Shown here: positions 43,278 through 64,000 of the stretch, one piece after another
Layout of the letters: every line of letters starts with the position of its first letter
Numbering within the stretch: the stretch's first letter is position 1
NCBI GenBank assembly: GCA_963664405.1
Contig: OY761158.1
Span: 704,001-768,000 of the forward strand
Length of the DNA stretch: 64,000 nt
Source: Thermoanaerobaculia bacterium
GTDB lineage: Bacteria > Acidobacteriota > Thermoanaerobaculia > Multivoradales > Multivoraceae
Reading direction: 5' to 3'
Program-made: the position numbers and the translations under genes
The notes under the pieces: model-generated
Seen by the model: only the letters and a program-made list of their open reading frames with translations
What the model was told of the DNA's origin: nothing
Databases searched by the model: none

Positions 43278-43515
43278 TAAGTGACTTTATATCAACCATT
43301 TGCGAATCCTCATCTCAATTGTGTCAGCACTATGTCAGCACAACTCCCCGCTTCGACGCGACTGACTGATTACAAGTCCCTCTTAGGGGCTGACTCAGCA
43401 GTACTCCTAGACACTAAAATACTCAATCTAAAAGGGTTTATTGGATTTCTTGGTTTCTCGAGATAGGCCGAGATCGGGACAGTTTTGCGGAGTTGGTGAA
43501 CAAACGGTGAACAAG
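43278..43515. mobile_element. att-like scar of a tyrosine-integrase element
   Basis: IHF consensus TATCAACCATTTG at 43290-43302; tandem 11-mers at 43320-43341 and 11-bp-spaced GGTGAACAA at 43495-43514; tRNA-Thr(TGT) anticodon-arm fragment on the minus strand at 43365-43378; AT-rich. Confidence 0.5.
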
Positions 43516-43539
43516 CTCTCATCAAGGGGCTGTCTGGCT

Positions 43540-43884
43540 GAGTTGGTGAGCAGGAGGTGAGTAGCTCGTCGGGTAGGGGATCAGCGAACGGCTTCAGATC
43601 GGTGCCATCCAGGGGCGGGCTCCCGCAGAGGTCGAAACGACGCCGGTGCTGAGAGGTCAGGTGTCGCACCCACGCACATATCGCGACAAACTGTCGCCTT
43701 TCACCCGCGGGCCACCACGACTGACCTGCTCCCCATTCTGGTACCACAGATCATGACAATTCATCGGCCACCGGCACAGCAGCGCCCGTAAGTTCCAGCC
43801 ACTCCACATCGAAGGGGCAGCCAACACGGTGGCGTCATCGTCTATGAACAGCAGATGCCCCGTAGGGCTGTACAGCTTGTGCAA
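43540..43884 (-). pseudogene. Degraded fragment of a kinase-associated TolB-like beta-propeller
   Basis: LYSPTGHLLF...VLAAP/(frameshift)FDVEWLELTGAAVPV matches RYVPTGHLVY...VLAVQFDAEHLEVTGPSVPV of the 49062 kinase. Confidence 0.65.
43662..43688 (-). repeat. Single TGTCG-N17-CGACA site
   Basis: tgtcgcacccacgcacatatcgcgaca; AT-rich side suggests reverse orientation. Confidence 0.6.
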
Positions 43885-47661: not shown

Positions 47662-47742
47662 GAACCGAACTCCAGCACACGGTGCGCCACCGCGGGGTCT
47701 CGTGTGCGGTACTGAAAGATGTAGACCTTGCAACCGAAACCA

Positions 47743-47834
47743 GTGACACCGGTCTGGCGCGAGGCGACACGAATAGCTGAGACCGAATAAGCCCCGCAAC
47801 AGCGTAGATGTCTATCTGGCGGATAGGATCCGCC
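47743..47834 (+). repeat. Partial leader module (degenerate site 1, ATAGC/ATAAG box, -10 hairpin)
   Basis: gtgacaccggtctGGCGcgaggCGACAcgaATAGCtgagaccgaATAAGccc; ggcggaTAGGATccgcc. Confidence 0.65.
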
Positions 47835-47847
47835 ACCTGGGAGAGAA

Positions 47848-48849
47848 ATGATGCCGATGCTTGTCCTCAGCCAAACCGAGGTCCGTGAGCTCCTGCCCAT
47901 GGATCGTTGTATCGACCTGATGGCGGAGGCCCTGACCGGCCTCTCGGCGGGTGAGGCGGTCAACCCGCTGCGTCACGGCATCTTCCTGCCTGACCGGTCC
48001 GGCCTTCTGGGCCTGATGCCGGGGTATACCGCCGAGCCGGCGGCACTCGGGGTCAAGGTCATCGCCGTCTTCCCGGACAATCACGGCAGCGAGCTTGACT
48101 CCCACCAGGGCATCGTGGCCCTCTTCGACGCACAGAACGGACGCCCCCTGGCCATTCTCGAGGCCAGTGAGATCACGGCGATCCGCACGGCGGCGGCCAG
48201 CGGTCTCGCCACCCGGCTGCTGGCGCAGGAAGACGCGTCCGAGCTAGCGATCCTGGGCTCCGGCACACAGGCCCGCACCCACCTAGAAGCGATGGCGGCA
48301 GTCCGACCTCTCAACGAGGTTCGAGTCTTCAGTCCCCATCGCGAGCACCGCGAAGGGTTCGCAGCCGAGGCTCGCCGGCGTTCGAGCTTGCTGGTCAGAG
48401 CTGTCGACTCCGCCGAGGAGGCGGTGCGGGGCGCCGATATCATCTGCACCACGACGACTTCGGCTGATCCAATAGTTGATGATAGCTGGATCCATCCTGG
48501 AGCCCATATCAACGCGGCCGGCTCCAGCGTGGCCAGCGATCGTGAGCTCGACACCGCGTCGGTGCTTCGCGCTCGACTCTTTGTCGACTGCAGGGAGTCG
48601 ACAGTCAACGAGGCAGGAGACTTTCTGATTCCGAAGAAGGAAGGCGCGATCACCGACGAACACATTCAGGGCGAACTCGGTGAGATTCTGCTGGGCAGCA
48701 TCCAAGGCCGCCAAAGTGCCGACGAAGTCACGCTCTTCAAGTCGCTGGGGGTAGCGGTCGAAGATCTGGCCGCAGCGACCTACGTCTATACAGAGGCTAA
48801 GGCTCGGGGAGTCGGGACCGAGGTCGAGCTCGGAGGCATGCGTTCCTAG
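47848..48849 (+). CDS. Ornithine cyclodeaminase/mu-crystallin family protein
   Basis: MPGY, TAIRTAAAS, GSGTQA, FKSLGVAVEDLAAA. Confidence 0.92.
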   Translation: MMPMLVLSQTEVRELLPMDRCIDLMAEALTGLSAGEAVNPLRHGIFLPDRSGLLGLMPGYTAEPAALGVKVIAVFPDNHGSELDSHQGIVALFDAQNGRPLAILEASEITAIRTAAASGLATRLLAQEDASELAILGSGTQARTHLEAMAAVRPLNEVRVFSPHREHREGFAAEARRRSSLLVRAVDSAEEAVRGADIICTTTTSADPIVDDSWIHPGAHINAAGSSVASDRELDTASVLRARLFVDCRESTVNEAGDFLIPKKEGAITDEHIQGELGEILLGSIQGRQSADEVTLFKSLGVAVEDLAAATYVYTEAKARGVGTEVELGGMRS

Positions 48850-48917
48850 AGGAGGTTCAGCGGTATGGATACTGGCGCCGGAGTATTGTTCCATTCACAT
48901 CGTTCGCTTTCCGGAGC

Positions 48918-49061
48918 TGTCGCGAAATCCGGCGGACCACGACAAGAATAGCTCGAAGCGAATAAGCCCCCCGCTGTCGCACTTTTGGGTGCTTCGAGAC
49001 ACGTTAGATCGAGCCCTGAGCCGCTGATCCCCCGGGCGACGGGTAAGATGTTGCCAAGTCA
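48918..49061 (+). repeat. Kinase leader module B
   Basis: Sites at 48918-48944 and 48975-49001 (right arm AGACA); TAAGAT hairpin before the ATG. Confidence 0.9.
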
Positions 49062-51740
49062 ATGACCCTTGAAGCTGGCACTCGCCTCGGCCACTACGAA
49101 GTGGTCTCTTCCCTCGGCGTGGGAGGAATGGGAGAGGTCTATCGCGCCAAGGACACGAAGCTCGGTCGCGAGGTAGCGGTCAAACTCCTGCTCGACGAGG
49201 TCTCCTCTGACCCGGAGCGCCTAGCTCGCTTCGAGCGCGAGGCTCACATCCTCGCCTCGTTGAACCACAAAAACATCGCCAGCCTCCACGCCTTCGAGCG
49301 GGAAGGCGATACCAACTTCCTCGTGATGGAGTTGGTCGAGGGCGAGACCTTGGCTGACCGCATCAAGAGAGGTGCGGTACCAGTCGATGAAGCACTGCCC
49401 GTCTTCTTGCAAATCGCGGAGGGCCTGGAGGCAGCTCACGAGAAAGGCGTCATCCACCGGGATCTGAAGCCTGCGAACATCAAGGTAACCGACGACGGCC
49501 AGGTGAAGATCCTCGATTTCGGGCTGGCCAAGGCGATGGCTGTGGAAGCTAGTGCCACCGGAGACGGCGTCTTGTCCGAATCTCCGACCCTCACTCTTGC
49601 CGCGACTCAGCGGGGCCAGATTCTCGGTACGGCGGCCTACATGGCTCCCGAGCAGGCGCGAGGAAAGACCGTCGACAAGCGCGCCGATGTGTGGGCCTTC
49701 GGGGTCTGTCTGTTCGAGGCGCTGAGCGGCAAGCGAGTCTTTGCGGCCGAAGATACTTCTCAGATTCTGGCCAAGGTTCTGGAGCGTGAACCTCAGTGGG
49801 ATGATCTCCCAAGGAGTGTGCCGGCCCCGATTCGCCAACTGCTTGATCGCTCACTGACGAAAGACATCCGGAGTCGTCTCCAGGCAATCGGAGAGGCAAG
49901 AATCACCGTCGAAAAGTACTTGACCAATCCTTCGGCCTACGATGCAGAGGCCACATCCATTCAACAGCTGATTGACAGACGGCAGATGATGCCCTGGACT
50001 GCTGCTGGGCTGTTGGTTGTAGCACTTCTGATTTTGCTGGTGGTCCTGTGGCCTGCTACTAGCTCGGTAGGGCCTCCGTCCGTCGGTCGATTTGCAGTTA
50101 CAGCACCAGGAGTTCTGAGAGGCGGCCACACGCCGAACCTGGCCTTGTCACCGGATGGCACGCGTGTGGTGTTTGCCGCGTTGCGTGGAGGCATCCCTCT
50201 GCTTTTCGAGCGACCCCTAGATCGCCTGGAGGCAACGCCGATGCCAGGCACCGAGGACGCAAGGGATCCGTTTTTCTCCCCCGATGGCCAATGGGTGGGC
50301 TTTTTTGCCGATAGCAAACTGAAAAAGGTGTCACTTCTCGGTGGCCGTCCGCAAGTCCTCTGCGAGGTCCCGAGCGGCCACGGTGGGACTTGGGGCCCGG
50401 ATGACACCATTTACTTCTCTCCATCGCACTCATCTGCACTATCCAAAGTTTCGGCCAGCGGAGGCACGCCCGAGGCTTTGACGAACCTCGACCCTGGCCA
50501 GGGCGAGACGGCACACTACTGGCCGCAAGTTCTTCCGGGGGGGCGACAAATACTTTTCACCATCTCGAAGAGGGACCTCCGGGATGTCAGTATCGCGGTG
50601 GAGTCTGTGGAGACCGGTGAACGGCACATTCTCTTGGAAGGCCTTTACGCTAGGTATGTGCCGACGGGACACCTGGTCTATGCGCACGGGGAGTCAGTCC
50701 TGGCGGTACAGTTCGATGCCGAACATCTAGAGGTGACCGGCCCTTCAGTGCCGGTGCTGGACGGTGTGCGGTTCTCAGCGTTAGGAGCCGCAGATTTTGC
50801 CGTTTCTGAAGCCGGATTGCTAGCCTATAGACCTGCCGGTACGGACGCAGACAGCGGTGAACTGGTTTGGGTGGACCGAGAGGGATCCGCTCAAGTCATT
50901 TCGGAATTCTCGCGCTCCTATTGGGCAGCTCCCCGCCTCTCGCCCGATGGCGAACGTGTGGCCGTAACTATTGGAAGAGAAGACCGCGACATCTGGATCT
51001 ATGAGCTGGTGCGTGACACCTTAACTCGGCTAACTTTTGACGGAAGCAATCAGCTTTCAGTCTGGACGCCCGACGGTCAAAGAGTGGTGTTCGCCTCAAG
51101 TCGCCACGGAGGGCAGCCCAATCTGTATTGGAAAAGGGCGGATGGCACCGGGCAGGCAGAGCGTCTGACAACAAGCGAAAACTCTCAGTTTCCCATGGCT
51201 TTTTCACCTGAGGGTGAGGTCTTGATCTTTATTGAATATGATCCCCGGTCCTTGTTTGACATCTGGAAGCTTCCGCTCGATGGCGAACCGAAGTTGTTTC
51301 TCCAAACTCCCTTTCAGAATTTTGCGGCAGTTGTTTCCCCCGATGGTCGATGGATGGCTTACCATTCCACGGAATCGGGACAGAACGAGGTTTACGTGCA
51401 GGCCTATCCTGAGCCTGGGGGTAAGTCGAAGATTTCAACCGATGGAGGTACTAACGCGGTATGGGCTCAAGACGGTCGAGAGCTATTCTATCGCAACCAA
51501 AATAAGATGATGGCTGTTGCAATGGAGAGTGTGGGAGAGTTCAGGCCTGCCAAGCCAAGACTCCTTTTCGAACGACCATACCGGGCTGGCGAGCTGCCTC
51601 GCGAGTATGACATCTCACAAGACGGCCAGCGTTTTCTGATGATAAAACAGGCGGAGACGACCGAGGAAGGCCTGGGGAATCAGGTGATTCTGGTGCAGAA
51701 CTGGTTCGAGGAGCTGAAGCGTCTCGCCCCCACCGACTGA
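49062..51740 (+). CDS. Ser/Thr protein kinase with TM and TolB/PD40 beta-propeller
   Basis: [27 protein letters not shown]; SPDG repeats. Confidence 0.95.
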   Translation: MTLEAGTRLGHYEVVSSLGVGGMGEVYRAKDTKLGREVAVKLLLDEVSSDPERLARFEREAHILASLNHKNIASLHAFEREGDTNFLVMELVEGETLADRIKRGAVPVDEALPVFLQIAEGLEAAHEKGVIHRDLKPANIKVTDDGQVKILDFGLAKAMAVEASATGDGVLSESPTLTLAATQRGQILGTAAYMAPEQARGKTVDKRADVWAFGVCLFEALSGKRVFAAEDTSQILAKVLEREPQWDDLPRSVPAPIRQLLDRSLTKDIRSRLQAIGEARITVEKYLTNPSAYDAEATSIQQLIDRRQMMPWTAAGLLVVALLILLVVLWPATSSVGPPSVGRFAVTAPGVLRGGHTPNLALSPDGTRVVFAALRGGIPLLFERPLDRLEATPMPGTEDARDPFFSPDGQWVGFFADSKLKKVSLLGGRPQVLCEVPSGHGGTWGPDDTIYFSPSHSSALSKVSASGGTPEALTNLDPGQGETAHYWPQVLPGGRQILFTISKRDLRDVSIAVESVETGERHILLEGLYARYVPTGHLVYAHGESVLAVQFDAEHLEVTGPSVPVLDGVRFSALGAADFAVSEAGLLAYRPAGTDADSGELVWVDREGSAQVISEFSRSYWAAPRLSPDGERVAVTIGREDRDIWIYELVRDTLTRLTFDGSNQLSVWTPDGQRVVFASSRHGGQPNLYWKRADGTGQAERLTTSENSQFPMAFSPEGEVLIFIEYDPRSLFDIWKLPLDGEPKLFLQTPFQNFAAVVSPDGRWMAYHSTESGQNEVYVQAYPEPGGKSKISTDGGTNAVWAQDGRELFYRNQNKMMAVAMESVGEFRPAKPRLLFERPYRAGELPREYDISQDGQRFLMIKQAETTEEGLGNQVILVQNWFEELKRLAPTD

Positions 51741-51748
51741 GCGAAGCG

Positions 51749-51899
51749 TGTCGTGAAATGTGGCGCACTGCGACAGGTATAGCCGAAAGGCGATAGACCC
51801 CGAAATGAAGGCGCTGTCGCAGTTCAGGGTGAGGTCCGACAGCACAGATCGAGCTCTGAGCCGCTGATCCCACGGGCGACTGTAAGATGTCGCCAAGTC
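51749..51899 (+). repeat. Kinase leader module C
   Basis: Sites at 51749-51775 and 51815-51841; GGCGACtgTAAGATGTCGCC. Confidence 0.92.
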
Positions 51900-54800
51900 A
51901 TGGCGCTAGAAGCTGGCACTCGCCTCGGCCACTACGAAGTGGTCTCCTCGCTCGGTGCGGGGGGCATGGGAGAGGTGTACCGCGCTCGCGATGCCAACCT
52001 GGGTCGAGAAGTCGCCATCAAGGTTCTGCCCGAGGCGATGGTCCGTAATCCTGATCGGCTGGCCCGTTTCGAGCGCGAGGCCAGAGTGCTGGCTTCGCTC
52101 AACCATCCCCACATCGTCACGATCCATGCGGTCGAGGGCGAAGGCGAGCTGCGCTTTTTTGTGATGGAGCTGATCGAGGGACGGACTCTGGAGGCTGCTC
52201 TGCGTCGAGGTCCTTTCGATGCCGACGCTTTCGTCGAGACTGCCGTTCCGATCGTCGAGGCGCTTGCCGCGGCACATCAGCAGGGCGTCACCCACCGCGA
52301 CCTCAAACCGGCCAACGTCATGATCAATGAGTCTGGATGGGTCAAAGTGCTCGATTTCGGTCTTGCCAAGGAGGTCGCACCGAGCTCTCACTCGGCGAGC
52401 ACGGAGGCGACGACCGCCGGCATGACCGAGGTCGGCAAAGTCATGGGCACCGTGCCCTACATGTCCCCCGAGCAGCTACGAGGCCTGCAGGTGCAAGCCA
52501 CTTCGGACGTTTTCTCCCTGGGCGTCCTGCTCTACGAGATGGCGACAGGACGGCACCCCTTCCGGGGCGACAGCGACATCGACTTGGCGTCGGCGATCCT
52601 TCGCGACACTCCGCGAGCGGCGAGCGCTGTCGGGACACTGCTACCGGTAGAGCTCGACCCAATTCTGGCTCGCTGTCTCGAGAAGGACCCGAGGAAGCGC
52701 TTCCCGTCGGCAAGCGATCTTCTGGAGGCTTTGATGGAGCTTCGCGACGGCTCACCGGCAGGGGGCGTCGAGTTGGCGCGGATTCCCACGTCGGTATCCG
52801 CGGCGACGGTGTACCGCACACCGATGGTGGGCCGGCAGTCCGAAGCGGAGCAGCTACGCCAGGCACTGGAGCGGGCCTCGAACGGTCAGGGGGCGCTCGT
52901 GACCCTGGCTGGGGAGCCGGGCGTCGGGAAGACGCGGCTCGCGAGGGAGACGATCTCGCAGGCCCGCGAGCGGGGCTTCCTGGCTCTGGTGGGAAACTGC
53001 TACGAGGGCGAAGGAGTGCGGCCTTTCAGCCCCTGGGTCGAGATCCTCGACGCAACGGCGAGGGTGGCTCCCAAGGAAACACTACGCAGTCTTCTTGGAG
53101 ACGAAGCCTCCGAGATCGCCAAGATCTATCCGGGACTCAGACGCCTCTACCCCGACCTGCCGCCGCCGTTGGAGCTACCGCCGGAAGCCGAGCGCGGCTA
53201 CCTCTTCGACTGTTTTCGCGACTTCATCGAGCGCTCGAGTGAGCTTCAACCGCTGCTCCTGGTGCTCGAAGATCTGCACTGGGCGGACGAGCCGACACTC
53301 CTCTTGCTGCAGCATCTGGCTCAACGAGTCGCGCAGTTTCCGCTCCTGATCGTCGCCACGTATCGCGATGTCGAGCTCGATGTCGCGCGTCCTCTTGCAA
53401 GTAGCCTACGAGAGCTGGTGCGCGAGCGTCTGGTGGAGCGCATCTCGCTCGGGCGCCTATCCTTCTCTGCGGTGTCCGAGATGCTCGCGGCACTCAGCTC
53501 CCGAGAGCCGCCGGCTGACCTGGTCGCTGCCATTCACGGTGAGACGGAGGGCAACCCTTTCTTCGTAGAAGAGGTGTACGAGCACCTCGACGAGGAGGGT
53601 CGACTGTTCGACGACCAGGGTCAATGGCGAGACGGCCTGACGCTCGAGGATCTCGAGGTCCCCGAGGGAGTCCGACTGGTCGTCGGTCGCCGTCTGGAGC
53701 GACTCCCCGAGGACGGTCGCCGGATCCTGGCGACGGCTGCGGTGATCGGACGCAGTTTCTCCTACAGCCTCGTGAGTGCCGCTTGTGAGGCGGAGCCCGA
53801 CCTTCTGTTGGAGGACATCGAGGCCGCCGAGGCGCTGCATCTGATCGAGCGCACGAAGAGTGCCTCGCCGCGGGAAGCCCGCTACCAGTTTGGGCACGAG
53901 CTGATCCGACAGACTCTTCTCCAGGGGCTGTCAATGCCTCGCCGCCAGCAGATCCACCATCAGGTCGCAGAAGCGATGGAGGCTCTCTACGCCGGAGCTC
54001 TCGACGAGCATGCCGCAGCGATGGCTCACCACCTCTATCAGGCGGGCGCGATGATCGAAGAGGATCGGGCCCTTCACTTCTTCACTCTCGCGGCCGACCA
54101 GGCCCTGGCGGCCGGCGGTTTCGAGCAGGCTGTGGAGCAGTTAGACCTTGCCCTGTCGTTGCGAGCTGCCGAACGTGCACAGCAGATCGACCTGCTCTGG
54201 AAGCGCGGTCGGGCGAGAAAAAGCCTCGGCTTGTTTGCGGAGGCTCTGGCGGATTGGAAACAGGCTCTGACATTGTGCGAGCAGGGCGCGGATCCGGCGA
54301 CCGTCGCACGCATCTCCTGGGATCTCTCACTTCAACTCGGCTGGCAAGCCGAGCCGGCCGAGATGGTGGAGGAGTCTCAGCGCGGCCTGAGACTGATGGG
54401 CGAAGCGCAGGGGCCGGAGCGCTGCCGCCTCCTGGCCATGGCGGGGATGGCGTTGGCGTTCGATCGGCAGTTCGAAGAAGGGGATGCGCTGATTGCCGAG
54501 GCGATCCCGATGGCTGAGAGTCTGGGAGATCCTGCTCTGCTCGGCCACGCCAGGCTGATGAGTTCATACATTTATTGGCACTCGATGCGCATGCCCCAAT
54601 TGGTGTCGAACAGCGAGCAAGCGATCGAGATTCTGAAAGGCACCAACGATCCTAGGAGCCTGATTGACGCCCGTGCCTACCTCGCGTTCGGCAAACTCGC
54701 CATGGGCTGCTCGAACGTGGACACGTCAGAGTTCGAAGAGGCAGCGCTGCGACTCGGAAGTCACGGGGACCACTACATATTCCTGATGGTTCGAGCTCAG

Positions 54801-55526
54801 TCGGCGTGGATGCAGAGCGCCGATATCGATCGCTTCGACGGGCTTATCGAGGAAGCATTCGGTCTCCCTGACATGCCTTGGCATCTGTTCGCGCGAGGGT
54901 GGCGTGGTTTGGCTGCGTTCTGGAGAGGCGACTGGGAGACTGCGTACGAGCTTCTGGCTGAAGCCGTGATAGGAGAGCCGGTCGGGGCGCTCTACGGCGT
55001 CACCACGTCCTCGTTGCTCCTCGTCTCCGGCTATCTCGGTCGACGAAGCGAGGTGCTCGCCCTCTATGACTCGGAAGACGCCCTTCCTCGAGGCTCCGGC
55101 CCGAACGCCAACGGCGCCTGGTGCGTGCTACTGGGCGCTACAGAGGCGCTCGCCATCCTGGGAGAGCGAGACCGGGCCGCTGAGCTCTACTCGATGCTCG
55201 AGAGAGCCATCGATACCGGCACGCTCATCCCGCCTTACGTTCCGCGGCTCCTGCAGACGACTGCCGGCATCGGGGCCTCCTGCCTGCGCGATTGGGACCG
55301 CGCTGAAGGGCACTTCCGGAAGGCTCTCGAACAAGCCGAGAGAATCCCTTTCAAGAGTGAGCAGGCGGACGCCCGTCGTTGGTACGCGGATATGCTCCTC
55401 GAACGCGGCGCCCCCGACGACACGGCTCGGGCGCATCGGCTCCTGGAAGAGGCGCGCACCATTTACGAGCAGATCGGGATGCCCAGACACGTCGGCCTCA
55501 CGGAAGATCTGCTTGCCAGGGTCTGA
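51900..55526 (+). CDS. Ser/Thr protein kinase with STAND-type AAA ATPase and TPR domains
   Basis: [11 protein letters not shown]; [21 protein letters not shown]; helical repeats. Confidence 0.95.
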
Positions 55527-55556
55527 AGAGCCGGCGCGGCGCAAGTCGGACGAGAC

Positions 55557-55707
55557 TGTCGCATTTGGTGGCGCACTGCGACAGCCATAGCTCGATCCGC
55601 ATAAGCCCTCGCTGAGCGCTTTTGTCGTCTTTCTGGGTGAGGTGCGACAGCACAGATCGAGCTCTGAGCCGCTGATCCACCGGGCGACTGTAAGATGTCG
55701 CCAAGTC
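55557..55707 (+). repeat. Kinase leader module D
   Basis: Sites at 55557-55583 and 55623-55649; GGCGACtgTAAGATGTCGCC. Confidence 0.92.
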
Positions 55708-58368
55708 ATGGCTCTAGAACCAGGCTCCCGCCTCGGTCCCTACGAGATCGTCGAGCTGCGCGGCAAGGGCGGCATGGGTGAGGTGTACCTGGGCCGCGAC
55801 ACACGCCTGGAGCGGGATGTCGCCATCAAGGTGCTACCTGAGGATCTCGGGCAGGACACGCTCTACCGCCAGCGGCTGGAGCGTGAAGCGAAGAGCCTCT
55901 CGCAGCTGAGCCATCCCCATATCTGCACGCTTCACGACATTGGCAGCGAAGACGGTGTCGATTACCTGGTCATGGAGTACCTGGAGGGCGAGACTCTCGA
56001 GGATCGGCTCCGACGCGGCGCTATGCCCCTGGATGAGGTCGCGACGATCGGATCGCAGATCGCCGAGGCCATCGATGCCGCCCATCGTCACGGAGTAGTC
56101 CACCGGGACCTCAAACCTGGCAATGTCATGCTGACCCGAGACGGAGCCAAGGTTCTGGACTTCGGCCTCGCCAAGGGCGTGGTTCACGCCGGACTGGCCG
56201 TGGGGGATACACAGACCCCGACCGTCACGCAGCCCCTGACCGGCGAAGGCTCGATCCTGGGGACGCTCCAGTACATGGCCCCGGAGCAGCTCGAAGGCAA
56301 GGAGGCCGACGAGCGCTCGGACATCTGGGGGCTGGGTGCTGTCCTCTACGAGATGGTGACGGGAGCGCGACCCTTTGCCGGGGAATCCCAGGTGAGGCTC
56401 ATGGCCGCCATCATGACCAGCGAGCCGGAGCCGTTACGGGAGCGGCGGCCAGTGGCTCCCGATCGCCTCGACTGGCTGGTGAGCCGCTGTCTCGAGAAGG
56501 CCCCAGAGCGTCGCTGGCATTCCGCCCACGACCTTGCCCTCGAGCTCGAGGCCCTTACCGATAAGCCCGAGACCGAGACGGAGCCTGCCAAGCGTCAGGT
56601 ATCGGCGGTCCTCGCCGGTGCCCTCGGCCTCCTCGCCCTCGTCCTGATCCTCGTTCTCGTCCTCGGCTACGTCCTGCCCCGGGGCGGAGGCGATGCGACC
56701 AGCGACGCTGCCTCGGGCGACACCTGGACGGTCACGGCTCTCGACCTCGAGGCAGCTCCGGATCAGCCCTTCGTGCTCTCTCCGGACGGTCGGATGGTGG
56801 TCTTCAGTCGTCGCGAGGGAGCCGAGACCAGCCTCTACCGGCGCGCTCTCGACTCCCTGGTCGCCGAGCGCATCTCCGGCAGTGACGGTGCCCTCAGCCC
56901 GATCTTCTCGCCCGACGGCAAACAGCTTGCCTTCGTGGACGCCGGGGGCAGTCTGAAGACGCTTCCCGTGGGGGGCGGAGGCGCCAGCACTCTGGTGGAC
57001 GGGATCTTCACAGCCGGTGTCTGGGGGCGCGATGGCTTCCTCTACTACACGCTTGGCTTCGGCAGCTCCACGTCTCTTGAGCTATGGCGGATTCCGGCGG
57101 GTGGGGGCGTCCCCGAGCAGGTGGGGCATGGCTTCGGCACCGCGCTTCTGCCTGGTGAGAGGGTCGCCTTGACTTTCATGAGATCCGAGCGTCCGGACCT
57201 CTTCTGGAGCGATGTTCGGGCGGTGGACCTTGAGACCGGCCAGGAACGGGTTCTGGTCCCTGGGGCGCAGCCGTTCTATCTCGATCCCGGGGTTTTGGTC
57301 TTCTATCGCGAGGGCGGACTGTGGGCAGCGCCGATCGATCCCGAGACCGGCGACCTCCTCGGCCCGGCGCGTCAGGTCGAGAACGAGGTGGCCCCGGTCC
57401 TCGTCGGTGGCACCGATCTCGGCCGCTTCTGGCTCGCAGATTCGGGCGACCTGCTCTACGTTCTCGGGAGTCGGAGTGTGGCCCGCCTGGTTTGGGTGAG
57501 TCGGGACGGCCGGGATATCGAGGAGGTGGCGCCGGAGAGTAAGCCTTTCGGGTTGCCGCGACATTCCCTGGACTGGCGCCGGATCTCGGTGGGCGCCCTT
57601 GACGCCAAGGGGTATTACGAGCAGTGGATGCTCGACCTCGAGACCGGCTCCTGGACCCGCCCGACCCAGGAGGGGAATCGCAACCTTGGCGCGATGTGGG
57701 TGCCCACCGACGGCCAGGAGATCGTCTTCATGTCGGATCGCTTCGAGGGGCGCTTTCAGCTCTACATCCAGCCCGCCGATCGCGGGGCCCCGGCGGAGCG
57801 TCTCGTACCGTCGGAGCACAACCAAGCCCCGCTCGACTTCTCCCCTGACGGGCGCTACATGCTCTACACGGGCCTCCTCGATGTCAACGGGCTCTGGGTC
57901 TTCGACCGGGAGAGCGGGGAATCCGAGACCCTCCTCGAGGGGAACGTGCTCGGCGCCGCCCGCTTCCACCCCACCGGACGTTGGATCGCTTACTCGATGG
58001 GGGTTCAGAGCGAGCAGAACGTCTGGATCCGGCCCTTCCCCGGTCCCGGCGAGCCGCGCCAGCTCACCTTCGACGGCGGCCAGGAGGCGAGCTTCTCCCC
58101 CGAAGGCAGCGAGATCCTCTACCGCAGCCCGACCCACATGATGACGCTCCCGATCGAGATCTCCGGCGAGCGCTTCGTCACCCGCCGTCCCGAGCCACTC
58201 TTCGTGGATGATTACCTGCGCATACCCATGAGCTACCAGAACTACACCGTCCACCCCGACGGTCGCTTCCTCATGATCCAGGCGGCAGAGGCCGAGGAGG
58301 AGCGTCTAGTCTTCATCCAGAACTGGCGGGCCAAGGTGCTCGAGATGTTCTCCGAGGGGAGCTCGTGA
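55708..58368 (+). CDS. Ser/Thr protein kinase with TM and TolB/PD40 beta-propeller
   Basis: Start MALEPGSRLGPYEI at 55708; HRDLKPGN, DFG, APE; SPDG repeats. Confidence 0.95.
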   Translation: MALEPGSRLGPYEIVELRGKGGMGEVYLGRDTRLERDVAIKVLPEDLGQDTLYRQRLEREAKSLSQLSHPHICTLHDIGSEDGVDYLVMEYLEGETLEDRLRRGAMPLDEVATIGSQIAEAIDAAHRHGVVHRDLKPGNVMLTRDGAKVLDFGLAKGVVHAGLAVGDTQTPTVTQPLTGEGSILGTLQYMAPEQLEGKEADERSDIWGLGAVLYEMVTGARPFAGESQVRLMAAIMTSEPEPLRERRPVAPDRLDWLVSRCLEKAPERRWHSAHDLALELEALTDKPETETEPAKRQVSAVLAGALGLLALVLILVLVLGYVLPRGGGDATSDAASGDTWTVTALDLEAAPDQPFVLSPDGRMVVFSRREGAETSLYRRALDSLVAERISGSDGALSPIFSPDGKQLAFVDAGGSLKTLPVGGGGASTLVDGIFTAGVWGRDGFLYYTLGFGSSTSLELWRIPAGGGVPEQVGHGFGTALLPGERVALTFMRSERPDLFWSDVRAVDLETGQERVLVPGAQPFYLDPGVLVFYREGGLWAAPIDPETGDLLGPARQVENEVAPVLVGGTDLGRFWLADSGDLLYVLGSRSVARLVWVSRDGRDIEEVAPESKPFGLPRHSLDWRRISVGALDAKGYYEQWMLDLETGSWTRPTQEGNRNLGAMWVPTDGQEIVFMSDRFEGRFQLYIQPADRGAPAERLVPSEHNQAPLDFSPDGRYMLYTGLLDVNGLWVFDRESGESETLLEGNVLGAARFHPTGRWIAYSMGVQSEQNVWIRPFPGPGEPRQLTFDGGQEASFSPEGSEILYRSPTHMMTLPIEISGERFVTRRPEPLFVDDYLRIPMSYQNYTVHPDGRFLMIQAAEAEEERLVFIQNWRAKVLEMFSEGSS

Positions 58369-58377
58369 GCGAGAGTC

Positions 58378-58531
58378 TGTCGCTTTTGGTGGCGGACTAC
58401 GACACGAATAGCCAAGTGTCGATAGCCTCCAGAGAAAGGCCGTCTGTCGTACTTCTCGGTGCTTTGCGACACCCACAAAGCGATCGGCGAGCAGCTGATC
58501 CCACCGGCGACGGGTAAGATGTCGCCAAGTC
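58378..58531 (+). repeat. Kinase leader module E
   Basis: Sites at 58378-58404 and 58445-58471; GGCGACgggTAAGATGTCGCC. Confidence 0.92.
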
Positions 58532-58585
58532 ATGGCTCTAGAAGGTGGCACTCGGCTCGGCGACTACGAAGTGGTCGCTCGCTGA
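58532..58585 (+). pseudogene. Kinase N-terminal stub
   Basis: MALEGGTRLGDYEVVAR*. Confidence 0.85.
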
Positions 58586-58636
58586 GGCAGTCATAAATGC
58601 CATTATGAAGGGCCGCAACGCCGAAAGGAGGTCCCG

Positions 58637-59278
58637 ATGGCGGACGAGTGGGAATTCAAGACTGAGACCTACGATAATTGCAATTGCGCCGTGAACTGTG
58701 GGTGCCAATTCAACTTGCCCACTACCCATGGCTATTGTCAGACGGCCTATTTCGGCACCGTGGTTGAAGGGCATTTCAATGGGACGCCGCTCGCGGGCCT
58801 CAGGTGGGCGGGGCTCTGGAAATGGCCGGGGGAAGTCGCGGCGGGCAACGGCACGCGCCTCATCGTCATCGATGAGCGGGCGGATGACGCGCAACGGGTG
58901 GCGCTCGAAACGATTGTCGCAGGCGAGGCCTGCGCCCCCCTGAGCAACGTTTTCTCCGTGTACGGCTCTTGTTGCACCGAATTTTTGGACACCGCGTTCC
59001 TACCCATCGAGTTCGAGGCGGACTTCGAGCACCGTACCGCCAAGGCCCACATCCCGGGCATCCTGACCAGCCAGGGAAGACCGATGATCAATGAATTCAG
59101 TGGCGAACCGTTTCACGTGGCGCTGGCCCGCCCAAGTGGGGGCGTCGAGTTTACGTACGCGGAACTCGGCCTGGGAACGACCACAGTGGGCGGGGGCCTG
59201 GACATGGCGTACGCCGATTCCTTTGCCATGTTTTGCGTGCTCCACTTCAATCAGGATGGCCTGATCCGGCCGACATGA
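58637..59278 (+). CDS. DUF1326 domain protein, copy 1
   Basis: NCNCAVNCGC motif, GNGT..IDERAD; AAGGAGG RBS. Confidence 0.85.
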   Translation: MADEWEFKTETYDNCNCAVNCGCQFNLPTTHGYCQTAYFGTVVEGHFNGTPLAGLRWAGLWKWPGEVAAGNGTRLIVIDERADDAQRVALETIVAGEACAPLSNVFSVYGSCCTEFLDTAFLPIEFEADFEHRTAKAHIPGILTSQGRPMINEFSGEPFHVALARPSGGVEFTYAELGLGTTTVGGGLDMAYADSFAMFCVLHFNQDGLIRPT

Positions 59279-59484
59279 GGGTGGGCCGCCGGGTGGCCGT
59301 CGACGAGACACTCGAGCGATGGGTCGAGAACGGACGAGCGCCCGATCAGATCCTCGCTTCCCACGCCCTCGGCACGATCGGGATGCGCTCACGGCCGCTG
59401 TGCCCGTACCCGGAACTGGCCATCTACAACGGATCGGGTAGCACCGACGACGCTCGAAACTTCGAATGCCGACTAAACCCCTGA
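59275..59484 (+). pseudogene. Chimera of a DUF2182 5' end and a tannase/feruloyl esterase 3' end
   Basis: First 14 codons match 62966 onward; then LERWVENGRAPD...RPLCPYP...GSGSTDDARNFEC. Confidence 0.75.
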
Positions 59485-59493
59485 GCTAATCGG

Positions 59494-59543
59494 TGTCGCG
59501 ATTCGTGGCGAGAGGCGACAGGAATAGCTTGAGCCGCATAAGC
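59494..59543 (+). repeat. Half leader module F
   Basis: tgtcgcgattcgtGGCGagaggcgaca followed by ggaATAGCttgagccgcATAAGc. Confidence 0.85.
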
Positions 59544-59559
59544 TTGTTGCGTCCCAAGA

Positions 59560-61797
59560 TCAGCGAAACACGTCGAAGAGACGGCTGTACTTGAGGACCA
59601 GGGAGCGGTCTGGCTTCGGCTGGGCCAAATGACCGAACCCCGCGACCTCGTTGTAGACCACGAACAGTCCCGTATTGGCAGCGCCGAGCCAGCTGAAACG
59701 CAGATTGGTGGAGACGTCGTCCGTGACGTCGTTGTACTGAATCAGCGCCTGCAGCAATACTCTGGTGCTGAAGGCGAAGGTCACACGAAGCCGGCCGAGG
59801 TTGGTCTTGAACGCCCCTGTCTCGAGATCGACGTCGTTGTGGGACCAGCCGAGCTCGGAGCTCAGGTAGTCGCTGAGACGAAAGTTGACGGTGGGGTTCA
59901 GCGACAGTTGGTTGCCGTTGAAGAAGCCGCCGCCCTGGATGAACCCGCCGAGACTGATGGCGCGGCCTCGGTTGGTGCTGAACAAGATGAAGAAGGTGTC
60001 GTTGGCGTAGCTGCCGGACGGGACCACTACCCCGTCAAAGATCTCGAAGGGTTCCTGCAGCCGCTCGAGCTGCTGACCCACGAAGAGATTGATGCGCGCG
60101 CCGCTGCGAAGCTCCATCTCACCACCGAACGAATACCTCTCGCTTTCGTGAAAGCCGGTGAACTTCCAGTAGCTGTCGTAGAAGAACGAGGGTCCGAGCT
60201 CCTTGATCCGTCCCTGCCCGCTGGGACGAAAGCGACGCTGGAGCCGACTGTTGAGCCGCCGATAGTCCGACCGGTTCACAAAGCCCACCTCCGGGTTGAA
60301 CTCGGCTCCGACCTCCGAGTAGCCGGCTCTCAGGCGCCACGACGGCGAGTTGAAGTTCGAGTCGAGACCGAAGGCGCGGTCGCGGCCTTCGAGTCCCGGG
60401 GTCTCGGTCTTGGCCGCCCAGCCCGACAGATCGGTGTACTGACCGATACCGAGCTGACCGTCGACCCCGAACGTGCGGTTGTGATCGCCGTCGGGCGCCA
60501 GCGAGCCCGTCCCCTGTCGGTTGACCACCATGACTCCCGCCCGGCCACGGTTGCGAAACTCGCGACTGAGGCGGCCGACGGTAAAGTTGTTGGCGTGGAG
60601 GTCCTGATGGTCTTCGGTCTGCATACTGAGGAAGCCCACGTTCAGTCCGGCGGCCTTTCCTGAAAGCCGTACCCCGCCGACGATGGGCACCCGCTCCCCA
60701 TCGTCGAGGCCGATCCGACGGCTGAAGAAGAGGTCGACATTGCCCGATCCTGGACCTCCCCCGCGGGGCGTACCGATCTTGAACAGGCCGGCGTTCTCGA
60801 GGAAGAACGGCCTCTTTTCCGGGAAGAGCAGGCTGAAGCGGTCGAGGTTAATCTGTTGGTCGTCCACCTCGACCTGGGCGAAGTCGGTGTTGACCGTCAC
60901 GTCGAGGGTGAGGCTCGGGGTGATGCCGTACTTGAGGTCCAAGCCGCCCTCGGTCGAGCTGTTGCGCTCCGTGAGGCCGTCGTCGCGGACCTCGGTCAGT
61001 GCGTACGGAATGACCTGCAGATTGCGCTGCTTGGGCGTCTCGATTCCGACCAGTGTGCCGGCCGCCGATATCCGGAAGAGATCGAACTCCCGGCCCAGCG
61101 GGGCCCAGAACACGGTCTCGGTCTTGCGCCGGATGTTGCGCTCGAAATTGATGCCCCAGGTCGAACCGCCCGAGCCGTAACGCAGGCTTCGAAACGGGAT
61201 GGCCAGCTCGGCACTCCAGCCTACGTCGCCCGTCTTCGAGCGAACGGTCCAGGAGGTGTCCCAGTCGAGGTTGGCGGAGCCGCCTTGCCGCCGACCCGAG
61301 CCACGGCGGCGACTGCCGCCTCCGGTACGCCCCTCGTTGGTCACCTGGCCGTCGTACTGGATGCCCGCCAGGTTCGTACCGAAGACGAAGCCGTTCTGGC
61401 GGTCATGAAAGGTGTCGAGGACGACCCGGAAGCTGTCTTCCTCCTCCAAGTTCGCATCTCGCCGGCTGTCGGAGACGGCCAGCGAGCCGGCCTCGGAGTC
61501 GTAGCAGACGACAGCGATGTACAGCATCTGGTCGTCGAAGGCGACCCGCACCTCGGTCCTCTCACTCGCGGGTTGACCCTCGAAGGGCTGTACCTGCACG
61601 AATCCGGTCGCCACCTCCACTTCTTCCCAGATGGCCTCGGAGAGGACTTCCCCGTCCACCTGGGGCGCGGTCGCCAGTCGATACGCCTGGAGCTGGGGTC
61701 TCCCGCGCTCCTGCGCTTCGACAGACCCGAGCGGCGTCACGAGTACTTGTATGCCGACCAGAACGACGTAGGGCCTGATGAGCCTTGTGTGTCGCAT
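59560..61797 (-). CDS. DUF5916 outer-membrane protein with CBM9-like N-terminal domain
   Basis: TVNTDFAQVEVD..INLDRF..FPEKRPFFLE; beta-barrel-like C-terminus. Confidence 0.85.
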   Translation of the reverse strand: MRHTRLIRPYVVLVGIQVLVTPLGSVEAQERGRPQLQAYRLATAPQVDGEVLSEAIWEEVEVATGFVQVQPFEGQPASERTEVRVAFDDQMLYIAVVCYDSEAGSLAVSDSRRDANLEEEDSFRVVLDTFHDRQNGFVFGTNLAGIQYDGQVTNEGRTGGGSRRRGSGRRQGGSANLDWDTSWTVRSKTGDVGWSAELAIPFRSLRYGSGGSTWGINFERNIRRKTETVFWAPLGREFDLFRISAAGTLVGIETPKQRNLQVIPYALTEVRDDGLTERNSSTEGGLDLKYGITPSLTLDVTVNTDFAQVEVDDQQINLDRFSLLFPEKRPFFLENAGLFKIGTPRGGGPGSGNVDLFFSRRIGLDDGERVPIVGGVRLSGKAAGLNVGFLSMQTEDHQDLHANNFTVGRLSREFRNRGRAGVMVVNRQGTGSLAPDGDHNRTFGVDGQLGIGQYTDLSGWAAKTETPGLEGRDRAFGLDSNFNSPSWRLRAGYSEVGAEFNPEVGFVNRSDYRRLNSRLQRRFRPSGQGRIKELGPSFFYDSYWKFTGFHESERYSFGGEMELRSGARINLFVGQQLERLQEPFEIFDGVVVPSGSYANDTFFILFSTNRGRAISLGGFIQGGGFFNGNQLSLNPTVNFRLSDYLSSELGWSHNDVDLETGAFKTNLGRLRVTFAFSTRVLLQALIQYNDVTDDVSTNLRFSWLGAANTGLFVVYNEVAGFGHLAQPKPDRSLVLKYSRLFDVFR

Positions 61798-61985
61798 GGG
61801 CTCTAAACTGCCTCGGAGGCTAGTCAGCTCCCCCGTAGCCAATACGGCAAGGACTGATCGAACCGGCGTTCTGGAAATCGCGGGCGAGAATCATAGTTGT
61901 CAGCCAGCAGAACCACCAACCAAAGGCGTACCTCTCAGGTCCTCGACCCTTGCGGAGCGGCCTCCCTGCTATCGACTGAGTGTCG

Positions 61986-62128
61986 TGTCGCAGAATACAG
62001 CGCACTACGACAGCTATAGCTGAAGTTCGATAAGAGCCGAGAAACGCGCTCGTGTCGCGATTCTGGGTGGACTGCGACACCGCGAACCGATGATCACCAT
62101 GGGCGAGGAGTAGAATCCTCTCTACCTC
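61986..62128 (+). repeat. Kinase leader module G
   Basis: Sites at 61986-62012 and 62053-62079; GAGGAgTAGAATCCTC hairpin. Confidence 0.88.
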
Positions 62129-62218
62129 ATGGCGCTAGAAGCAGGCACCCGTCTGGGCCACTACGAGGTGGTCTCTTCCCTCGGTGCAGGGGGCATTGAT
62201 CGCCTCGCCAAGCGCTAG
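62129..62218 (+). pseudogene. Kinase N-terminal stub
   Basis: [29 protein letters not shown]. Confidence 0.88.
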
Positions 62219-62327
62219 GCACCACTTCAGCCCCCAGAACTTCGACGTAACGTGGGAAGCCACCGGGAGGACCCGCCGCTTCTCAAAATGCCACTAAGAT
62301 GGGCCGTAGCGCCGAAAGGAGGTCCCG

Positions 62328-62969
62328 ATGGTGGACGAGTGGGAGTTCAAGACTGAGACCTACGATAATTGCAATTGCGCCGTGAACTGTGGGTGCCAAT
62401 TCAACTTGCCCAGCACCCATGGCTATTGTCAGACGGCTTATGTCGGCACCGTAGTTGAAGGCCATTTCAACGGGACGCCGCTCGCGGGCCTCAGGTGGGC
62501 GGGGCTGTGGAAATGGCCGGGGGAAATCGCGGCGGGCAACGGTACGCGCCTCATCGTCATCGATGAGCAGGCGGATGACGCGCAGCGGGGGTCGCTCGAG
62601 ACGATTATCTCGGGCGAGGCCTGCGTCCCCCTGAGTAATGTCTTCTCCGTGTACGGCTCTTGTTGCACCGAATTCTTGGACACCGTGTTCCTACCCATCG
62701 AGCTCGAGGCGGACTTCGAGCGCCGTACCGCCACAGCCCACATCCCGGGCATCCTGACCAGCCAGGGCCGACCGCTGATCAATGAGTTCAGTGGCGAACC
62801 GTTTCACGTTGCGCTCGCCCGCCCAAGTGGGAGCGTCGAGTTTACGTACGCGGAACTCGGCCTGGGCACGAGCACGGTGGGCGGGGGTATGGACATGGCG
62901 TACGCCGATTCCTTTGCCATGTTTTGCGTGCTCCACTTCAATCAAGAAGGCCTGATCCGGCCGACATGA
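62328..62969 (+). CDS. DUF1326 domain protein, copy 2
   Basis: Same 213-aa length and nearly the same sequence as 58637-59278. Confidence 0.85.
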   Translation: MVDEWEFKTETYDNCNCAVNCGCQFNLPSTHGYCQTAYVGTVVEGHFNGTPLAGLRWAGLWKWPGEIAAGNGTRLIVIDEQADDAQRGSLETIISGEACVPLSNVFSVYGSCCTEFLDTVFLPIELEADFERRTATAHIPGILTSQGRPLINEFSGEPFHVALARPSGSVEFTYAELGLGTSTVGGGMDMAYADSFAMFCVLHFNQEGLIRPT

Positions 62970-63604
62970 GGATGGGCCGCCGGGTGGCCGTCGGCGAGAC
63001 ATTCGAGGTGATCGTCAGGCGTGATCGCCTGGTCGTCGTGACCGCACTGACGGCGGTGATCGCGCTGGCATGGGTGTATCTGCTGGCCGGCGCCGGGATG
63101 GGCATGTCCGCGGTTGAGATGACCCGCCTGTCGCAGAGCGGGATGGCGGGAGGCATGGCGACGATGACGCCCGCGGTCTGGACGCCCGGCTATGCAGTCG
63201 TGATGTTCTTCATGTGGTGGCGATGATGCTGCCCAGCGCGGCGCCGATGATCCTGCTGTTCTCCGCCGTGAATCGCCGCCAGCGCGAGCGCGGCGACCCG
63301 TTTGTGCCGACTGGCGCCTTCGCCGTCGGCTACCTCGCCGCCTGGGCCGGCTTTTCTTTTTTCGCTGCCGCTGGGCTGCACTGGGCGTTCGAGCAGGCCG
63401 GCCTATTGTCTGGGGTGCTGCTGGTTCCTAATGGCGTTGTTGTTCTATGGCGAAGTTATGAACCTCTATTGGATCGGCGGGCTAGCGCTATACGTGCTGT
63501 TGGAGAAGACCATCCCATTCGGCCACTGGCTAGGCTCGACCACTGGTGTTGCTCTGCTGCTTGGCGGTGTCGTGATGTTGTTCGGCGTTATCGTTCCGCT
63601 TTAA
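62966..63604 (+). pseudogene. DUF2182 metal-binding membrane protein, frameshifted and internally deleted
   Basis: Family motifs MFFMWW, AMMLPSAAP and CLGCCWFLMALLF are split over three separate ORFs. Confidence 0.8.
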
Positions 63605-63632
63605 TCAAGCGGAGGGGGAGAATCCTATGGCA

Positions 63633-63753
63633 TGGCGAGTGTCAAGGTGGATCGCGACACGACGAACTCGGCTGATTGTCATGAGGGTGATCGAGTCAGG
63701 TGCGACTCCGGCAGCACGGACTGAAGTGTCGTCTTTTCTGGCGAACCACGACA
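63633..63753 (+). repeat. Two further 27-bp sites
   Basis: tggcgagtgtcaaGGTGgatcgcgaca (63633-63659) and tgtcgtcttttctGGCGaaccacgaca (63727-63753). Confidence 0.75.
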
Positions 63754-63772
63754 CCTTCCCCGCCGAGGCAAG

Positions 63773-64000
63773 CTAGTCCCCTGTCTTCTCCTTCGACCCC
63801 CGACGCTTCCGCGTCCGCCGGCCGACGAGCGCACCGAGGGCCGAACCGGGAAGAAAGAGTAGGCTGCCGATGCCGGTCGTGATGGCCCCAAGAAGCAGCC
63901 ATCCCCTGTCAAGACCCGGCAGGACCGCCAGTCCTATCACCTGGCCTGACCAGGCTCCGGGGAAGACGAGCAGCCAATGGCGGGGGAAGGCGTAGCCCAC
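63773..64000 (-). CDS. Membrane protein, 3' part (truncated by window edge)
   Basis: Hydrophobic ORF running off the window end. Confidence 0.45.
   Translation of the reverse strand: MGYAFPRHWLLVFPGAWSGQVIGLAVLPGLDRGWLLLGAITTGIGSLLFLPGSALGALVGRRTRKRRGSKEKTGD

Follow-up and report, generated by a model that had tools for sequence, protein, structure and literature searches.

Co-oriented 27-bp sites as probable joints of an integron-like cassette array in a Thermoanaerobaculia bacterium

To our knowledge, just one well-studied system, the integron, assembles exchangeable single-gene cassettes into long chromosomal arrays. Its attC sites are imperfect inverted repeats of 57 to 141 nucleotides (nt) that fold and carry paired R and L boxes. 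Shorter sites are used elsewhere. In the dif modules of Acinetobacter plasmids, 28-bp Xer-type sites in alternating orientation flank gene modules, and small serine recombinases act on crossover sites of 26 to 28 bp (res subsites, hix/gix) with TGT...ACA arms and an asymmetric central dinucleotide that sets direction. This article is about a family of 27-bp sites that resembles each of these systems in part. The sites were noticed in a stretch of 64,000 nt (the window, positions 704001 to 768000) from the genome of a Thermoanaerobaculia bacterium, a single contig (C1) of 6.78 Mb and 62.6% G+C that we refer to as G000. On the evidence of sequence, the 27-mers are real, functional and conserved, and they are places where gene cassettes were joined. 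The explanation we favor, at a probability of roughly 55%, is that they are the recombination sites of an integron-like cassette array without attC and without IntI, served by a recombinase in trans, and with a possible second role for the site nearest the promoter.

Our starting point was a sequence-only reading of the window that had listed 15 sites of the form TGTCG-N17-CGACA. The motif is present at every one of its positions, exactly at 11 of them and with one mismatch in each of sites 48975 and 63633. With up to one mismatch allowed, the window contains 20 matches where 3.1 are expected, and the maximum in 100 shuffles was 10. The reading was correct about the pair spacings (57, 66, 66, 67 and 67), about the core at positions 14 to 17 (GGCG in first sites, with AGCG at 61986, and GGTG in second sites) and about nnnATAGC-N9-ATA(A/G), which lies directly 3' of all first sites but 63727. 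It had seen no sites in the first 43 kb, and this stands: the matches there, at 3350, 6673, 7303 and 12973, are at chance level because each has one mismatch and no GGYG core. Two of its statements were too broad. The sites are intergenic except for 63633, which overlaps the 3' end of an open frame (63214–63675), and the proposed kinase array does contain kinases but also an ornithine cyclodeaminase gene, two DUF1326 genes and a reversed DUF5916 gene. The sites of the window and the one long segment they delimit are listed here in window coordinates. The strong sites of the genome are oriented 27-mers with the consensus TGTCGY-N7-GGYG-N5-CGACA.

43662 to 43688, minus strand: array-head variant of the 27-mer, with the usual arms and a different centre, reversed relative to the array
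47743 to 47769, plus strand: degenerate first-type site; right arm and ATAGC-N9-ATAAG kept, left arm lost
48918 to 48944, plus strand: first-type site (GGCG), followed by a 30-nt linker (48945–48974)
48975 to 49001, plus strand: second-type site (GGTG), right arm with one mismatch; −10-like TAAGAT at 49044–49049, ATG at 49062
51749 to 51775, plus strand: first-type site, 8 nt past a kinase stop codon; upstream boundary of the 3.8-kb shared segment
51760 to 55573, plus strand: shared segment of 3814 nt (linker, second site, promoter and kinase-AAA_16-TPR gene), 99.79% identical to genome 28171–31984 in another array
51815 to 51841, plus strand: second-type site after a 39-nt linker (51776–51814); −10-like box at 51883–51888, ATG at 51900
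55557 to 55583, plus strand: first-type site in which the 3.8-kb shared segment ends
55623 to 55649, plus strand: second-type site; −10-like box at 55691–55696, ATG at 55708
58378 to 58404, plus strand: first-type site, 9 nt past a kinase stop codon
58445 to 58471, plus strand: second-type site; 3' of it a kinase-type promoter, what is left of a kinase 5' end, and a DUF1326 gene
59494 to 59520, plus strand: first-type site with ATAGC-N9-ATAAG, without a second site or co-oriented gene 3' of it
61986 to 62012, plus strand: first-type site, core AGCG
62053 to 62079, plus strand: second-type site
63633 to 63659, plus strand: second-type-like site, left arm TGGCG
63727 to 63753, plus strand: first-type site in which a 0.83-kb cassette begins, to extend beyond the window end

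Each site is a joint. Positions 1 to 13 and the DNA upstream come from one cassette; positions 16 to 27 and the DNA downstream come from the next. A weight matrix finds 106 sites in the genome. When their flanks (36 nt on each side) were clustered, the left half of a site proved to travel with its left flank and the right half with its right flank. One left flank and its left half (cluster L07) is fused to three unrelated right halves, at genome 759557 (window 55557), 28161 and 614402. Another left-flank cluster, L01, has at least seven unrelated right partners, and right modules are likewise paired with many different left halves. The right half and linker of site 48918, for instance, are common to genome 614402 and 602260, whose left halves differ. 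Inspection of the table of clusters showed position 16 to be uniform in every right-flank cluster and non-uniform in two left-flank clusters, so the switch falls between positions 13 and 16.

Whole cassettes end at the same place. The 3814-nt segment begins and ends at site positions 12 and 17, and the flanks beyond it are only 29–31% identical to those of its partner. At the upstream boundary, identity is 0.29 to the left of the site centre and 0.99 to the right; at the downstream boundary it is 1.00 to the left and 0.31 to the right. A cassette of about 830 nt that begins in site 63727 is 99% identical to genome 4989807–4990640, in another array, with site centres bounding both ends. Outside these two near-identical segments, identity drops to 0.29–0.34. 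Homology between paralogous junctions in general breaks within the site, at positions 12 to 17. Strict high-identity alignments that end no more than 100 nt from a site centre do so at positions 11 to 21 in 10 of 28 cases, where an even spread would give about 1.5; six further ends, at +45 to +51, are insertion points of an insertion sequence (IS) element. The asymmetric core pointed out from the window alone is indeed where cassette ends fall.

The family extends far beyond the window. Exact-arm matches number 118 genome-wide against about 8 expected, and 88 of them have GGYG. The weight matrix, built from the exact-arm/GGYG matches of the whole genome, gives the 106 sites above a score cut-off of 20 (60 with core GGCG, 42 with GGTG) and none in the reversed-sequence control. 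Of these, 97 fall in eight arrays, and 15 of the 18 kinase paralogues of at least 60% identity have a co-oriented site no more than 250 nt upstream, so the motif is not scattered regardless of kinase genes. In the seven large arrays the sites share one orientation (13/13, 10/10, 23/23, 11/11, 14/14, 11/11 and 11/12), the sole exception being a head-type site. Site orientation stays that of the array even around reversed genes, a case verified by Pfam for the DUF5916 gene of the window. By a count of longest frames 10 of 52 cassettes are reversed, one of them wrongly called since the cassette in question, which carries a recombinase, is co-oriented. The 87 intervals between successive sites comprise 28 linkers of 57–67 nt, none of 71–300 nt and 59 of more than 300 nt.

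The array heads have a common layout (window 43500–43780; genome 41243–41362, 3944777–3944896 and 6523119–6523238): a 27-mer in reverse, its centre unlike the usual one, is separated by 3 nt from a single half-site, and the first GGTG site comes about 45 nt later. A 27-mer identical to the variant at 43662 stands at three other array heads (genome 41336, 617787 and 6523212). At 41336 and 6523212 the half-site follows 3 nt on, and the starts of the 27-mer and of the first GGTG site are 93 nt apart. Outward of three array heads, a stretch of about 120 nt is conserved, with no open frame, tRNA or Rfam match there.

Cassettes have also changed places in other organisms. When metagenome contigs were scanned for the first-type pattern, 93 stretches turned up. 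In the 80 that were examined, 77 loci contain 142 strong sites, and nearly all belong to other organisms than G000. Arms, core, linker and spacing classes are conserved in them, and kinase genes are present in 36 of the 93 loci. A 615-nt cassette that is 100% identical in contigs L130 and L124 has different upstream neighbors in the two; a 515-nt cassette, 97.7% identical in L123 and L130, has different neighbors on both sides; and one and the same gene end is fused to one right module in L123 and to another in L175. All of these switches occur at the site centre, with identity of 1.00 or 0.99 on one side and 0.30–0.42 on the other. The order of genes between sites thus differs among contigs of related organisms; this comparison had been proposed from the window, and its outcome favors reordering. 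The sequence-only reading had inferred signaling cassettes that are shuffled at the sites. The shuffling is borne out by comparisons within the genome and among metagenomes; the restriction to kinase genes is not.

Among genomes, the sites are sparse. In 40 relatives of the same family and order there are at most four matches per genome, and convincing sites occur only in G008 (three, each adjoining a −10-like box) and G007 (one). A relaxed search of these two genomes, with two mismatches, was too noisy for use. Across 400 genomes of the phylum there are no more than three matches each, with true-looking sites in G201, G121, G168 and G411; G201 has a GGCG/GGTG pair 66 nt apart. There is one site-like match in an unpublished genome, G088, on which we base no claim. 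G201 belongs to another family of the phylum and carries insertion sequences of 3.4 and 1.6 kb (L104, L105) that are 99.6–100% identical to many G000 copies. It also shares with G000 a kinase 3' end including its site. This sharing reflects either recent transfer or a mixed bin.

How might such a site work? With the two palindromic arms (TGTCGY and RCGACA) occupied by a recombinase, DNA would be cut and exchanged in the asymmetric centre, probably at G14-G15 or next to it, and this would give the site its direction. Arrays could then lose, gain or exchange the unit that runs from one centre to the next. Such a unit would usually consist of the right half of a GGCG site, the 39-nt linker, a GGTG site, the cassette's own promoter, its gene and the left half of the next GGCG site. 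The enzyme would act in trans, and the promoter-adjacent site would probably also aid transcription of the cassette gene.

Set against the known systems, the arrays look most familiar from integrons. Here too are co-oriented, diverse cassettes in different orders, a site placed just after the stop codon and boundaries that fall inside the recombination site. The likeness stops at the site itself, which is 27 bp with 5-bp arms and has no imperfect hairpin of the attC type and no GTTRRRY-type box in its consensus. The description of the system from the window as integron-like but not attC was apt, as neither an integron integrase nor an attC-like fold is present. Integron cassettes are mostly promoterless and depend on a common promoter, whereas 26 cassette genes here have a −10-like promoter of their own, and two site classes alternate around a conserved 39-nt linker. 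Like dif modules, the cassettes are discrete modules in varied contexts with short duplex sites of two arms and a centre, no adjacent recombinase and a host enzyme presumed to act in trans. However, dif modules alternate in orientation where the seven large arrays are uniform, and the sequences are unrelated. As an object, the site resembles the crossover site of a serine recombinase: 27 bp, palindromic TGTCG/CGACA arms, an invariant G14-G15 and an A/T-rich arm interior. A serine-recombinase res is a composite of subsites, and two sites about 66 bp apart here make about 93 bp. Yet a replicon has only one or a few of these sites, next to the enzyme, and this genome has more than 100, with serine recombinases near two kinase loci only.

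The junctions have a fixed anatomy. First sites start 1–13 nt past the stop codon of most upstream genes. After the first site come the 39-nt linker, the second site (GGTG), a −10-like box and the ATG; the linker contains ATAGC-N9-ATAAG/ATAGG and a small G+C-rich hairpin. In 26 cassette genes the −10-like hexamer (TAAGAT, TAGAAT, TATGAT or TAGACT) lies 11–12 nt before the ATG, so the transcripts would be nearly leaderless. From the end of the promoter-proximal site to the hexamer is 41–43 nt in 23 of the 26 and 29–30 nt in the other three. This fixed spacing argues for a role of the promoter-proximal site in transcription. Within the 27-mer itself only the arms and core are fixed, and positions 9–10 are A/T. 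We tried other identities for the 27-mer and rejected them. It is not a coding element (GGC/GGT glycine codons with an in-frame TAG), as its frame relative to the upstream stop varies. A promoter of the extracytoplasmic-function, sigma-54 or canonical sigma-70 type is at odds with the spacing, and between window positions 47000 and 64000 no sigma-70-like site, and so no canonical sigma-70 promoter, was found. The lack of pairing beyond the 5-bp arms rules out a hairpin or selenocysteine-type element.

The anatomy just described is what gives the main rival its appeal. A single transcription factor in control of a kinase and signaling regulon could use the 27-mers as its operators or upstream activating sites, the tandem pair serving cooperative binding or looping, and the junctions having arisen by breaks or template switches at protein-bound sites or by microhomology at the invariant blocks. 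All 26 promoter-proximal sites fall in the two spacing classes, which lie about one helical turn apart, and by inspection the same two classes occur in metagenome contigs with unrelated intervening sequence. Invariant arms and core about one helical turn apart, with a drifting interior, look like a pattern of protein contacts; the sites are paired; related genomes have single sites or pairs beside kinase genes; most of the kinase paralogues have their co-oriented site; and no dedicated recombinase was found. Tandem operators had been named as the alternative from the outset, and the fixed promoter distance agrees with them. What does not agree is that neither the orientation nor the presence of sites follows the regulated gene. 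Orientation tracks the array, even around reversed genes, and first-type sites sit 1–13 nt past stop codons, some of them (59494 and 63727) with no promoter or co-oriented gene after them; the gene that follows 59494 (59560–61842) is on the opposite strand. Operators would not produce homology breakpoints, and here the same few bases hold more than 20 independent junctions. A whole cassette with a site centre at either end requires two precise events, and untargeted breakage would hardly give such precision. Nor is a candidate regulator gene consistently present at array heads. We consider operators a less likely explanation than recombination sites.

Two other explanations fare much worse. 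The elements could act in RNA, as a terminator, processing site or stabilizing structure between the genes of a long transcript. First-type sites do closely follow stop codons, and, by inspection, the G+C-rich hairpin of the linker varies among families yet still pairs, with the T-rich left half of the second site next to it. But positions 6–13 and 22–15 of the 27-mer pair no more than expected, Watson-Crick counts beyond the 5-bp arms being at expectation, and the mutual information sits between neighboring positions. Folded as RNA, five junctions do not exceed their shuffles in stability (z −1.39 to +0.80), none of nine terminator-like matches (47000–64000) is at a site, and a search of 41000–64000 gave no tRNA and no Rfam family. 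A homology break at the site centre would also be left unexplained, and we regard an RNA element as very improbable. Passive repeats, whether relics of duplicated intergenic DNA or a selfish element without a cellular role, like repetitive extragenic palindromes (REP) or miniature inverted-repeat transposable elements, would suit a genome rich in insertion sequences that has many copies where its relatives have few. The arms and core, however, are invariant in 106 sites here and 142 elsewhere while interior and flanks are free to vary, which implies that they are under selection or that some mechanism regenerates them. Hairpins, terminal repeats and target duplications are lacking, as are the features of REP and of bacterial interspersed mosaic elements (hairpin-forming imperfect palindromes, inverted pairs), and the sites keep a fixed position with respect to stop codons and promoters. 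This is the explanation in which we have least belief.

The recombination-site explanation has its own difficulties, and we gather them here. Pure recombination sites do not need a fixed distance to a −10-like box, though many of the promoters are paralogous. Four whole-junction duplicates differ more in the site interior (8/52) than in the flanks (4/256), which a single central crossover does not explain. The other genomes of the phylum, with one to three sites each, have too few for an active array. In the organism's own data no excision, circle or order variant was seen, these data being short contigs that end in repeats. Of 23 listed sequencing runs, 17 contain the stretch or part of it, seven of them half of its words or more, and none of those listed is an RNA run. 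The joints listed for four of the runs lie inside kinase-domain paralogues at 90% likeness.

A further difficulty is the enzyme: no recombinase is linked to the sites. Co-occurrence with a recombinase had been suggested as a test from the window, and it does not single out either of two candidates from the genome. One is a 179-aa tyrosine recombinase, catalytic domain only, which is itself a cassette at an array tail (genome 5456062–5456601, minus strand; L091 2062–2601). Among the 40 relatives it has a close orthologue only in G008, frameshifted and 310 nt from a site, and orthologues are absent from the site-bearing G201, G121, G168 and G411. It belongs to a widespread family of about 175 aa (59–92% identical in the best 120 clusters of 1629 matches) that includes records from candidate-phyla bacteria. 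We rejected it as a dedicated partner because its orthologues do not track the sites and the family is so widespread. A 40-residue remnant of this recombinase lies at the tail of the window's array (genome 783022–783141). The other candidate is a small serine recombinase with two paralogues, closely similar by eye, one next to the tail of array 8 and one next to a lone kinase locus, and found nowhere else near the sites. It has no close orthologue in any of the five further genomes with sites (33–36% identity in four, no match in G008), and this want of co-occurrence speaks against it too. An integron integrase is absent from the genome: the 29 matches to TIGR02249 reach at best 122 bits against a cut-off of 265 and skip model positions of about 181–235. 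Nor was a recombinase found in the 93 site-bearing metagenome loci, short contigs that total 213 kb. The genome does have two Xer-like genes; their products are candidate enzymes, as are tyrosine recombinases of 308, 286 and 179 aa and a 229-aa serine recombinase. No dif-like match with up to five substitutions was found genome-wide, the query being a dif-type motif that may not be the dif site of this lineage.

There is a second family of 27-mers, with arms TGGCA/TGCCA and a centre as in the main family. Hybrids of the two exist, two with a main-family left and second-family right half and six with the reverse arrangement, at least two of the latter genuine-looking; the control gave none. This family, with its hybrids, counts in favor of recombination sites. 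Second-family sites are found at genome 2755903, 3326004, 4411921, 5455907 and elsewhere, and hybrids at 775761, 5456004, 1037011 and 4412953. Often a second-family site lies 17 nt upstream of a main-family site or beside a serine recombinase gene (2755041–2755679).

Mobile elements also go for set points of the site region, which likewise speaks for recombination sites. A complete group II intron sits within a first-type site, between positions 25 and 26 (genome 2679570–2682024, minus strand; L207 7570–10024). Its parts include a 435-aa reverse transcriptase-maturase, domain V/VI and a match to RF02005 at 143 bits. Three metagenome contigs (L116, L119 and L121) have the identical junction in sites whose left halves differ, and for this reason the intron appears to home to the sites. 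The targeting resembles that of attC: group II introns are reported to insert into integron attC sites (PMC3001079). An IS91-type element, too, has entered immediately 3' of the ATAAG/ATAG next to first-type sites (genome 37410, 599467 and 1012223, and in G201), and at array head 41336. Its two genes encode a 286-aa tyrosine recombinase and a 408-aa Y2_Tnp protein with an IS91 zinc domain; copies are at genome 34950–37055 and four more places, and L105 is the one in G201.

The genes carried as cassettes in the window are these.

47848 to 48849, plus strand: ornithine cyclodeaminase/mu-crystallin gene (PF02423, 1.2e-82)
49062 to 51740, plus strand: Ser/Thr kinase with PD40 repeats
51900 to 55526, plus strand: Ser/Thr kinase with AAA_16 and TPR
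55708 to 58368, plus strand: Ser/Thr kinase with PD40 repeats, starting at the ATG after the −10-like box
58637 to 59278, plus strand: DUF1326 gene
59560 to 61842, minus strand: DUF5916/CBM9 gene (Pfam), reversed between two sites in array orientation
62328 to 62969, plus strand: DUF1326 gene

Upstream of each DUF1326 gene stand a kinase-type promoter and the initial codons of a kinase gene (window 58472–58636 and 62080–62327), and the two cassettes seem to have been derived by deletion or fusion within kinase cassettes. As a marker of sites DUF1326 proved useless, with 80 loci in other genomes lacking a site. Just before the first degenerate site, and adjoining the ornithine cyclodeaminase gene, is an ATP-grasp protein with a PGM1-type C-terminal domain (46090–47661). 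Further along, the same array carries an RpoD-like sigma factor and a Na+/H+ exchanger. The sigma factor is full length (regions 1.1 to 4) and forms a cassette, with a site on either side, shortly beyond the end of the window (genome 771143–772837; L093 3143–4837). It is one of the three sigma genes in the genome with region 1.2.

Full-text literature searches turned up no published description of these sites or of kinase cassette arrays. What we may be looking at, and we offer it tentatively and at somewhat less than even odds, is an undescribed platform, analogous to the integron and built on short duplex sites. It would have two alternating 27-bp classes with a linker, a second arm family that forms hybrids and a site-specific group II intron of its own, and it would be widespread in an uncultured marine lineage. 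It would reshuffle self-expressed sensor genes (Ser/Thr kinases with beta-propeller modules or modules of the STAND type, that is, signal transduction ATPases with numerous domains; a sigma-factor paralogue; transporters), in effect a recombining repertoire of signaling receptors. Its recombinase would be a host enzyme or belong to a family not yet recognized as such. If this is true, a second cassette system exists that has different sites and no IntI, and cassette platforms arose more than once. The short directional site and its enzyme might also find use as tools. For the organism itself, the platform would account for the expansion and diversification of large Ser/Thr kinase families within one genome.

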